This document shows positions 9,532-11,345 of a stretch of DNA of 15,087 bases, in pieces (position 1 is the stretch's first letter; every line of letters begins with the position of its first letter). Below the pieces are notes generated by a model. That model was not told where the DNA came from, did no database searches, and saw nothing but the letters and a program-made list of their open reading frames with translations. The DNA is taken from positions 1-15,087 of IMG/VR virus record IMGVR_UViG_2698536392_000024. The stretch is one strand, 5' to 3'. The position numbers and the translations under genes are program-made. The DNA is from a virus (taxonomy: Duplodnaviria; Heunggongvirae; Uroviricota; Caudoviricetes).

Positions 9532-11139
9532 TTAATTTTTGCTATCATCATTAGTGACCGATACACATGATGGCATCCAGTCTTCTGATTCCTCCGTCAG
9601 TGTCACGTTTGAACGCAAACCGTGCTTCGTTTTCCGTTTCATATACTCCCTGCCATATTCCGCCATTGCCCCCGGCATATCTTTACCGAAGCGCGTCAGT
9701 GTTACAGGTTTACCAAACCCATGTGCCCGCATATAAGCCAGATAGGCATGATAGAGATACCTGCGTGGGCTGAATGGTACAATTTCAGCATTACCCACTA
9801 ACAGGCCATCACACATTACCGACGCCATGAGATAGCCGCAGAAGTCCACCAGCGAATCCCCCTCTCGCTTTATCGCCAGTGCTTCTTCAGATTTCTGCTG
9901 CTCATATAACAGGCGTCTGGCTTCGTCCTGGTCAGCAAACCGTGTAAGCAGATGGCGAATCACTACCGCCAGCTCACCTTCTATTTTTTCCGCCAGCATT
10001 GGATCGCGTTCGTTCTCCTGTACAACTTCCGAAAAATTGAATATCACCCGACGACGTGAGATCCCCCCGCTGCGGTCACTGAATGACATGGCGTTATTGT
10101 TAACCGCCAGCACTACTGCCGGAATACGCGTTGAGTAGGGGGCTTTGTGTTTCGGGTCAATTGCCACCTTGTCACCGCCTGTAATAGCCTTAATCCCTGC
10201 CCCATCACCAGCGTAGCGGGTCATATCCGGCATGATAATCAGCGAAAAGCCAACCACTAACGCGCGTTCCCTGGCATCTTCCAGCGCCTTCATGCTTGCC
10301 GATACCGTGTTGGCCTTACCCGCCAGCATGGTGCAAATCTCCGCCATCACGCTTTTACCACTTCCCCCTGGACCTGTTACCTCAATGAATAACTGCCAGT
10401 CGTACCGGTTCGCCAGCACCATGAATAATGCAGCCAGTACGCGATCCGCCTTGCGGTCATTCTCAGCCACCGAACGGCGTAACCACTTCCAGAAATTCGG
10501 CGCATGTGTTGCCAGCGTTTCCCCCTCTGCTGGTGGGCTGAAAGGTAATTCACTGGCAATTAACAACCAGTCGTTTTTGTTATGCTCCCGAAAATCGCCT
10601 GTCCGGGTATCAAAAACACCGTTACTGAATCCAATCAGGTTACGGGCTGTATTCCCCATTACAGGCAAACTTAACTTCATGGTATCGACCGCCGATTTAA
10701 TGGCGTTCTGCGAATAGCTGATCTCCGCATCAATGAAAATCTGTGCCATAGCTCGCTGTAATTCTTTATCCTGTACTGGCTCCCATACAACGCCGTTGTA
10801 ATGGTGAACAGTGTCAGAGTCAGCATGAATCGCCAGTTCACCGCCATAATGTGCCAGGAGAACTTCGCCGCGTTGACTTGCTCCCATCTGGTTAAGCGCC
10901 AGTGATGAAGTGTTATCGTCTTTTACCCGCTCTTTTTTCTTTACAGGCAGTTCAACTACCTTTTTCTTTTCCGCCAGCTCTGCCCGTTCACGTTCCAGAT
11001 ATTCGCGCCAGTTCTCCCGTTTCTGGCTGTGCATTCCTTCAGAGTAATAATCAGCATCCCTGACACCTGCCGCTGCCAGTTTCTGCCCGATGGTATTAAC
11101 AAGCCCCGGACGCAATAACCCCGCCTGATAGAGACGCAC
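9532..11139 (-). CDS. Replicative primase-helicase, P4-alpha / D5-like SF3 helicase portion
   Basis: 535-aa ORF; Walker A VTGPGGSGKS; D5_N / primase-C-terminal-like region LLAHYGGELAIHADSDTVHHYNGVVWEPV; track start is a GTG at 11139 with a weak RBS, and the same frame is open and protein-like upstream to about 11214. Confidence 0.85.
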   Translation of the reverse strand: MRLYQAGLLRPGLVNTIGQKLAAAGVRDADYYSEGMHSQKRENWREYLERERAELAEKKKVVELPVKKKERVKDDNTSSLALNQMGASQRGEVLLAHYGGELAIHADSDTVHHYNGVVWEPVQDKELQRAMAQIFIDAEISYSQNAIKSAVDTMKLSLPVMGNTARNLIGFSNGVFDTRTGDFREHNKNDWLLIASELPFSPPAEGETLATHAPNFWKWLRRSVAENDRKADRVLAALFMVLANRYDWQLFIEVTGPGGSGKSVMAEICTMLAGKANTVSASMKALEDARERALVVGFSLIIMPDMTRYAGDGAGIKAITGGDKVAIDPKHKAPYSTRIPAVVLAVNNNAMSFSDRSGGISRRRVIFNFSEVVQENERDPMLAEKIEGELAVVIRHLLTRFADQDEARRLLYEQQKSEEALAIKREGDSLVDFCGYLMASVMCDGLLVGNAEIVPFSPRRYLYHAYLAYMRAHGFGKPVTLTRFGKDMPGAMAEYGREYMKRKTKHGLRSNVTLTEESEDWMPSCVSVTNDDSKN

Positions 11140-11345
11140 GCGATAGCGTCCGTCCGGTACGATTTGCAGGTTGTCCAGTTCGGCAAGTTGTTGCCAAGCC
11201 AGACAGGAGGCACGTTATCGCCAGCCAGTCGCCCGTCCTGTTCCTGCCACTGCTTCGCATGTGCCCACACATCACTACCCGCAAAAATGATGACTTCCGT
11301 CATTTTGTCACGCGGCTGGTGTTTTAAATTTGGCGCTTTTTTCAT
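10956..11345 (-). CDS. N-terminal segment of the primase-helicase in a different frame; only the first ~50 codons look protein-like
   Basis: ATG at 11345 coupled to the upstream gene; MKKAPNLKHQPRDKMTEVIIFAGSDVWAHAKQWQEQDGRLAGDNVPPVWLG reads as protein, after which this frame turns W/R/C-rich while the helicase frame becomes protein-like from about 11200. Confidence 0.45.
   Translation of the reverse strand: MKKAPNLKHQPRDKMTEVIIFAGSDVWAHAKQWQEQDGRLAGDNVPPVWLGNNLPNWTTCKSYRTDAIACVSIRRGYCVRGLLIPSGRNWQRQVSGMLIITLKECTARNGRTGANIWNVNGQSWRKRKR

Follow-up and report, generated by a model that had tools for sequence, protein, structure and literature searches.

Phage-inducible chromosomal islands of the capsid-forming kind (cf-PICIs) are described as satellites of 10-18 kb that carry integrase, regulation and replication modules together with a packaging gene set, while a tail module and lysis genes are absent (PMC10085698; 10.1101/2025.02.11.637232). 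Among described replication proteins, the closest to the one considered here are the P4 alpha protein, in which a D5_N domain and a superfamily 3 (SF3) P-loop core are joined to a C-terminal winged-helix origin-binding domain, and the Rep/primase-helicase of the Staphylococcus aureus pathogenicity island (SaPI) type (PDB 7OLA/7OM0, deposited as "DNA primase"). Here we analyze a 15,087-nucleotide stretch of viral DNA (IMG/VR record IMGVR_UViG_2698536392_000024, positions 1 to 15,087; hereafter the window), which holds a satellite island of E. coli whose replication initiator/SF3 helicase gene is broken (9532..11345, minus strand; identified by Pfam and by the RefSeq label "DNA primase family protein"). 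It is very probable that a recent, lineage-specific 4-nt deletion turned this gene into a pseudogene by neutral decay, and that neither an artefact nor recoding is at play. The finding is real but ordinary. The window holds a dead copy of a satellite replication gene, and the locus is a frameshift pseudogene that is already known, as RefSeq/PGAP labels the identical loci of E. coli strains 2013C-4830 and 2012C-4227 "DNA primase family protein, frameshifted".

The intact protein is 605 aa long and shares its domain order with P4 alpha. Pfam places D5_N at residues 161-290 (PF08706, E=3.1e-13), a DUF5906 SF3 helicase core with the Walker A motif GPGGSGKS at 324-432 (PF19263, E=1.6e-10) and a Pox_D5-type C-terminus at 495-590 (PF03288, E=2.6e-12), and residues 497-593 match the P4 origin-binding domain (PDB 1KA8, E=1.9e-24). 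In both systems iterons adjoin the gene. However, no recognisable Toprim or archaeo-eukaryotic primase catalytic domain was found in the satellite protein; its first ~130 aa form an alpha/beta domain without an assigned family, and the copy in the window is broken. It also differs from TIGR01613 (NCBIfam, "phage/plasmid primase, P4 family"), against which it scores 94.1 bits, under the curated cut-off of 108.7. The likeness to the SaPI-type Rep is confined to the NTPase core, with residues 237-440 matching chain positions 435-638 (E=2.3e-10), whereas the two proteins are unlike in their N-terminal region and in the DNA-binding domain at the C-terminus. Judged by its domains, the gene is the island's replication initiator-helicase. 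The PHROGs assignment is phrog_864, "DNA primase", an annotation that finds no support here in any recognisable catalytic domain.

Intact homologues are single open reading frames (ORFs) of about 599-619 aa in E. coli, Citrobacter, Enterobacter and Salmonella (four enterobacterial genera), and the closest homologue cluster alone counts 3078 members. The gene in the window measures 1814 nt compared to 1818 nt for the intact allele, and its two parts lie in different frames of the minus strand. Frame A begins at ATG 11345 with MKKAPNLKHQPRDKMTEVIIFAGSDVWAHAKQWQEQDGRLAGDNVPPVWLG (MKKAPNLK...DNVPPVWLG). Exactly 51 of its codons (11345-11193, to ...PPVWLG) match intact homologues, 51/51 being identical to the intact allele; these are followed by 78 out-of-frame codons rich in W, R and C up to the stop TAG at 10958-10956, giving a shortened N-terminal ORF of 129 aa (10956..11345, minus strand). 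The -1 frame reads ...QQLAELDNLQIVPDGRYRVRLYQAG... and is open to the stop at 9534-9532. Its native part (9532..11193, minus strand) corresponds to residues 53-605 and, from Q53 to the stop, agrees at 553/553 positions with the 605-aa protein that strain 2013C-3492 carries intact. Alignment to the intact gene of strain 2013C-3250, and likewise a 5-way alignment, reveals one 4-nt gap (AGAG or GAGA) in CTTGG[AGAG]CAACAAC. The gap lies at window 11195|11194 or 11194|11193, the flanking G leaving its exact placement ambiguous (junction 11193..11195, minus strand). The deletion allele reads CTTGGCAACAAC at the site and the intact allele CTTGGAGAGCAACAAC, with GGAGAGCAA as the intact-allele letters at 11195-11193. 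The deletion takes away the last base of the Gly51 codon together with the whole Glu52 codon, and across the helicase gene the window and the 2013C-3492 sister allele differ by these 4 nt alone.

A preliminary description of this DNA, made from its letters, had proposed that a primase-helicase is split between 11185 and 11200 and had recommended alignment to intact homologues. That alignment located the lesion inside the interval, with the frames as described. The "1-nt frame change" of that description holds as the net frame offset, but the actual lesion is the absence of 4 nt rather than 1. Similarly, the downstream frame, said to be protein-like from ~11214, was correctly identified, but the stretch RASCLAW found there is not native and the native sequence of the -1 frame begins at 11193. 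The suggestion that both halves belong to one protein of ~600 aa agrees with the homologues, which are single ORFs and not two genes with the same boundaries.

The upstream DUF4222 gene (11342..11641, minus strand) has a stop that overlaps the helicase start by 4 nt (ATGA), which suggests translational coupling. Translation would begin at ATG 11345, coupled to DUF4222, slip out of frame after Gly51 and end at 10956, and the resulting 129-aa product is probably non-functional. The remaining 553 native codons, which specify D5_N, the SF3 P-loop helicase and the P4-type origin-binding winged helix as well as the second half of the N-terminal domain, would be left without a proper initiation site, and this would make the gene a pseudogene. 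The first start codons of the -1 frame are GTG 11139, TTG 11115 and ATG 11034. A start-codon survey found no well-spaced Shine-Dalgarno sequence at any of the three, in line with the earlier remark that the downstream frame lacks a good start or ribosome-binding site, and a promoter scan of 9200-12400 found no minus-strand promoter-like site able to serve the downstream ORF. As the protein is cut after residue 51 and no good internal start follows, we infer that its function has been lost. Of the options raised at the outset, an inactivating mutation is therefore the one that stands: a real 4-nt deletion in a gene that is intact elsewhere, with the loss of function deduced from sequence. The 129-aa N-terminal ORF product and a 134-aa counterpart have no record in the contig collection that was searched, because gene callers do not call them.

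The neutral character of this decay is suggested by a second lesion in the same island. The large terminase gene (1322..2982, minus strand) is also frameshifted, by a change of GGG to GG on the coding strand at window 2327-2328, which breaks it into a 257-aa ATPase part and a 297-aa nuclease part. This terL lesion is common to all four RefSeq relatives, including 2013C-3492 in which the helicase is intact, and it is found in 136 blocks of the public contig collection compared to 92 for the helicase lesion. Because the four relatives and the 136 blocks carry it, the terL frameshift is, on this distribution, older and more widespread than the helicase deletion. Strain 90-3040 carries a different helicase frameshift, a deletion in a G6 run. 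The terminase would thus have been lost first; loss of the helicase would have followed recently in a single sub-lineage, and perhaps a second time in 90-3040. Decay of the terminase followed by the helicase is the most economical history, although the nested order is drawn from five sequences. Since an older 1-nt frameshift had already cost the island its terL, neutral decay is the best reading of the helicase lesion, in an immobilised satellite that would no longer be able to package itself. The island would then be a clean example of stepwise cf-PICI decay, with terL failing first and the helicase afterwards, independently in sub-lineages. The carrier is a Shiga-toxin-producing E. coli clone that includes 2012C-4227, a strain of serotype O165:H25 (PMC4683243).

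Of the competing explanations, the one that survives best is a tolerated or functional split, in which a truncated helicase started at GTG 11139, TTG 11115 or ATG 11034 drives or regulates island replication with a changed function. We consider this unlikely. The longest ORF with a start codon in the downstream frame runs from GTG 11139 to 9532 on the minus strand and encodes 535 aa (V71-N605; start-codon survey and gene callers). The downstream frame is fully intact, with D5_N, the DUF5906 core (GPGGSGKS) and the P4-type origin-binding domain, and the origin-like iterons are intact as well; however, each candidate start is without a well-placed Shine-Dalgarno sequence, and with the terminase of the island dead, selection for replication is doubtful. 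It might also be argued that the N-terminal domain is a separable module, considering that it occurs on four NTPase classes. Against this, the cut falls inside the domain and not at its boundary, and the product from GTG 11139 would lack residues 1-70, half of a compact domain, including the invariant residues E17, G23, A26, P47 and L55. In a representative library at 50% identity, no full-length relative lacks the domain in a matching way, and the short matches are mostly fragments or frameshift alleles.

The N-terminal domain is nonetheless the sole lead of wider value from this locus, as it is common to several classes of satellite replication protein. Pfam gives no match to residues 1-~130 even at E<=10, a PDB profile search gave nothing below E=0.08, and Foldseek found nothing significant in the PDB for the domain model. 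In BFVD, Foldseek returned a single phage protein of 112 aa, itself uncharacterised (E=3e-4), besides weak matches labelled Toprim. The AlphaFold2 model is a confident four-stranded alpha/beta sandwich (mean predicted local distance difference test score 86.5, and >90 for residues 1-130). The domain is rare: among 1.84 billion proteins, only 92 representative clusters match it, always at the N-terminus, and it is fused to four NTPase types, namely D5_N/DUF5906/Pox_D5, DUF927, AAA_25 (RepA-like) and VapE. This representative search was more informative on domain architectures than a homology search with the N-terminal 132 aa, which returned mainly partial proteins and other frameshift alleles and was uninformative in that respect. 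The invariant residues are A4, E17, I20, G23, A26, P47, L55 and G77 (numbered on residues 1-130 of the intact protein, e.g., L006:11956-12345). The domain may be a degenerate Toprim-like primase or something else. Candidate roles are those of a minimal primase of a new kind, of a partner for DUF4222 or of a sensor for the helper phage. If the truncated helicase were made, comparing 2013C-3492 (intact) with the deletion strains would reveal the role of the domain, yet there is little chance that the deletion is a natural separation-of-function allele that cuts this ~130-aa domain.

An even less probable explanation is a sequencing or assembly error in a genome that truly carries the intact gene. 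Around the site, the window has 100% identity with the chromosomes of E. coli 2013C-4830 and 2012C-4227. Hundreds of other E. coli chromosomes match it at ~98% and span 605 nt where the window spans 601. With a 201-nt probe across the site, a gap-free match was found in 2/523 complete E. coli genomes (the same two strains), and all of the next-best rows (58/58) span 205 nt for 201 nt of query. The window is a third assembly, differing from these two closest genomes by 1-2 substitutions and an extra 132-nt tandem copy, with an additional 1-nt gap relative to 2013C-4830. When the whole island is aligned 5-way, the deletion and 11 single-nucleotide polymorphisms (SNPs) unite the window with 2013C-4830 and 2012C-4227, as opposed to 90-3040 and 2013C-3492. 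Over 7608 bp, deletion included, the window is matched at 100% identity by the Logan assembly of the short-read run SRR16947379. The 535-aa downstream product, which gene callers report only where the gene is broken upstream, is recorded in 92 blocks of the public contig collection, one of which (L008, the Logan assembly) was covered at the nucleotide level. What might favor an error are two singleton losses of 1 nt that resemble homopolymer errors, one in a G6 run of 90-3040 (at 10068) and one in a G7 run of 2013C-4830 (at 8591), but the 4-nt loss lies outside any homopolymer, recurs identically in two complete assemblies, the window assembly and a short-read assembly, and segregates with linked SNPs. 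The agreement among separate assemblies, taken with the linked SNPs, shows the deletion to be a genuine mutation that is inherited, and assembly error, which the preliminary description had also put forward, is therefore rejected.

The two singletons are seen in one complete assembly each, the G6 deletion (window-equivalent 10068) in L005 (90-3040) and the G7 deletion (8591) in L003 (2013C-4830), and each may be either a homopolymer error of long reads or a real lesion that arose independently. Other shortened alleles of the gene family are also present in public collections (P0016, P0041, P0049, P0061, P0075, and P0093), and these enter the same -1 frame at differing points of the N-terminal region. 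Given several such alleles, frame breaks in this gene are not rare, whether real or from sequencing error.

Least credible of all is a programmed -1 ribosomal frameshift or transcriptional slippage that fuses both frames into one protein: the shift needed is indeed -1 and a stable hairpin (window 11205-11172) lies at the frame junction, but the hairpin was itself created by the deletion, the zone in which a -1 shift is possible (from the last -1-frame stop at 11217 to the frame-A stop at 10958) contains neither an in-phase X_XXY_YYZ heptamer nor a homopolymer of at least 7 nt, and the split arrangement is confined to one lineage, being absent from ~521/523 related E. coli genes and likewise from the relatives that other genera carry. 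Upstream of the junction, in-phase heptamers occur only at 11331 and 11328, both ahead of four -1-frame stop codons, and a third, at 10938, is past the frame-A stop; the longest homopolymers near the junction are of 5-6 nt, with no A or T run >6. Lacking a slippery site, a long homopolymer and conservation, this option was rejected, and the frame break is no recoding signal.

As for the origin of the deletion, the site lies in an inverted repeat, TGTCTGG-C-TTGGCAA-CAAC-TTGCCGA-A-CTGGACA (11172..11205, minus strand). In DNA folding, the deleted allele forms a hairpin with an uninterrupted stem (-6.7 kcal/mol, z -3.0), whereas the intact allele has the four bases AGAG bulging from the 5' arm and is not predicted to fold into this hairpin (-4.4 kcal/mol, z -0.3). 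In E. coli mutagenesis, loss of exactly the unpaired bases is a signature of template switching in quasipalindromes. Because exactly the 4 unpaired nucleotides are removed, we propose that the deletion may have arisen by template switching in an imperfect inverted repeat, i.e., by quasipalindrome correction. The likeness to such mutations lies in a deletion that takes exactly these 4 nt and makes the stem continuous; the difference is that this is a single event.

A number of points weigh against the account given above, in its several parts. Loss of function is argued from sequence, and a 535-aa protein from GTG 11139 could be made at a low level; this product, minus the first 70 residues, would keep every domain recognisable by Pfam. 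Just 1/92 blocks (L008) was checked at the nucleotide level, and the reality of the deletion was judged by comparing assemblies. The template-switch proposal is built on one hairpin, and slippage on the (AG)2 dinucleotide repeat is an equally simple source of the same deletion.

The island itself extends over 167..15087 (minus strand), as delimited by annotation of the identical RefSeq loci, Pfam and direct repeats. At 14.8 kb it is located between cspD/yljB and clpS and is flanked by 64-nt imperfect direct repeats that are 77% identical, contain TTGTTCG sub-repeats and lie ~14.8 kb apart (L003:2107-2170 and L003:16911-16974). These are likely attL and attR: the attR-like repeat is at 167-230 of the window and the attL-like copy is just past 15087. 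No tRNA gene was found near the repeats. The gene order is integrase, AlpA, C4 antisense RNA and isrK, Icd/Ash, DUF4222, helicase, SSB, PerC, major capsid protein, prohead protease, portal, head closure, connector, HNH endonuclease, TerS and TerL. Integrase, AlpA and helicase thus represent the integration, regulation and replication modules of an island whose size falls within the published range, and annotation of the identical RefSeq loci shows the complete packaging gene set, TerL in frameshifted form. In these same loci, the stretch bounded by the att-like repeats has no annotated tail or lysis genes. By its gene content, the island is a capsid-forming PICI-type satellite that fits the published criteria. 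The helicase gene lies between the integrase/AlpA/regulation and packaging modules, which likens it, by description, to the pri-rep module of PICIs and cf-PICIs such as EcCIEDL933. It differs from described cf-PICIs in that the replication gene and terL are both frameshifted. Because of these two lesions, the prediction is that the island can neither package nor replicate autonomously, and that helper-phage-dependent induction, and transfer by means of helper tails, have been lost.

Directly after the helicase stop is an AT-rich spacer (9296..9518) in which the 9-mer GGTGAACAG/CTGTTCACC occurs seven times, in both orientations, accounting for 7/8 of its occurrences in the whole window. The island's replication origin, of iteron type, is probably this spacer, which would be bound by the C-terminal domain of the helicase. 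On the other side of the gene, Rfam identifies a C4 antisense RNA (12204-12291, minus strand; 72.6 bits) and the Hfq-binding small RNA isrK (12313-12388, minus strand; 69 bits). Their position upstream of Icd/Ash-like genes constitutes a P1/P7/P4-style immunity arrangement within a satellite. Finally, a 132-nt tandem repeat of 2.3 copies (window 731-1034) is found between the last island ORF and the attR-like repeat, and here the window has one copy more than the four related RefSeq genomes and the Logan assemblies.

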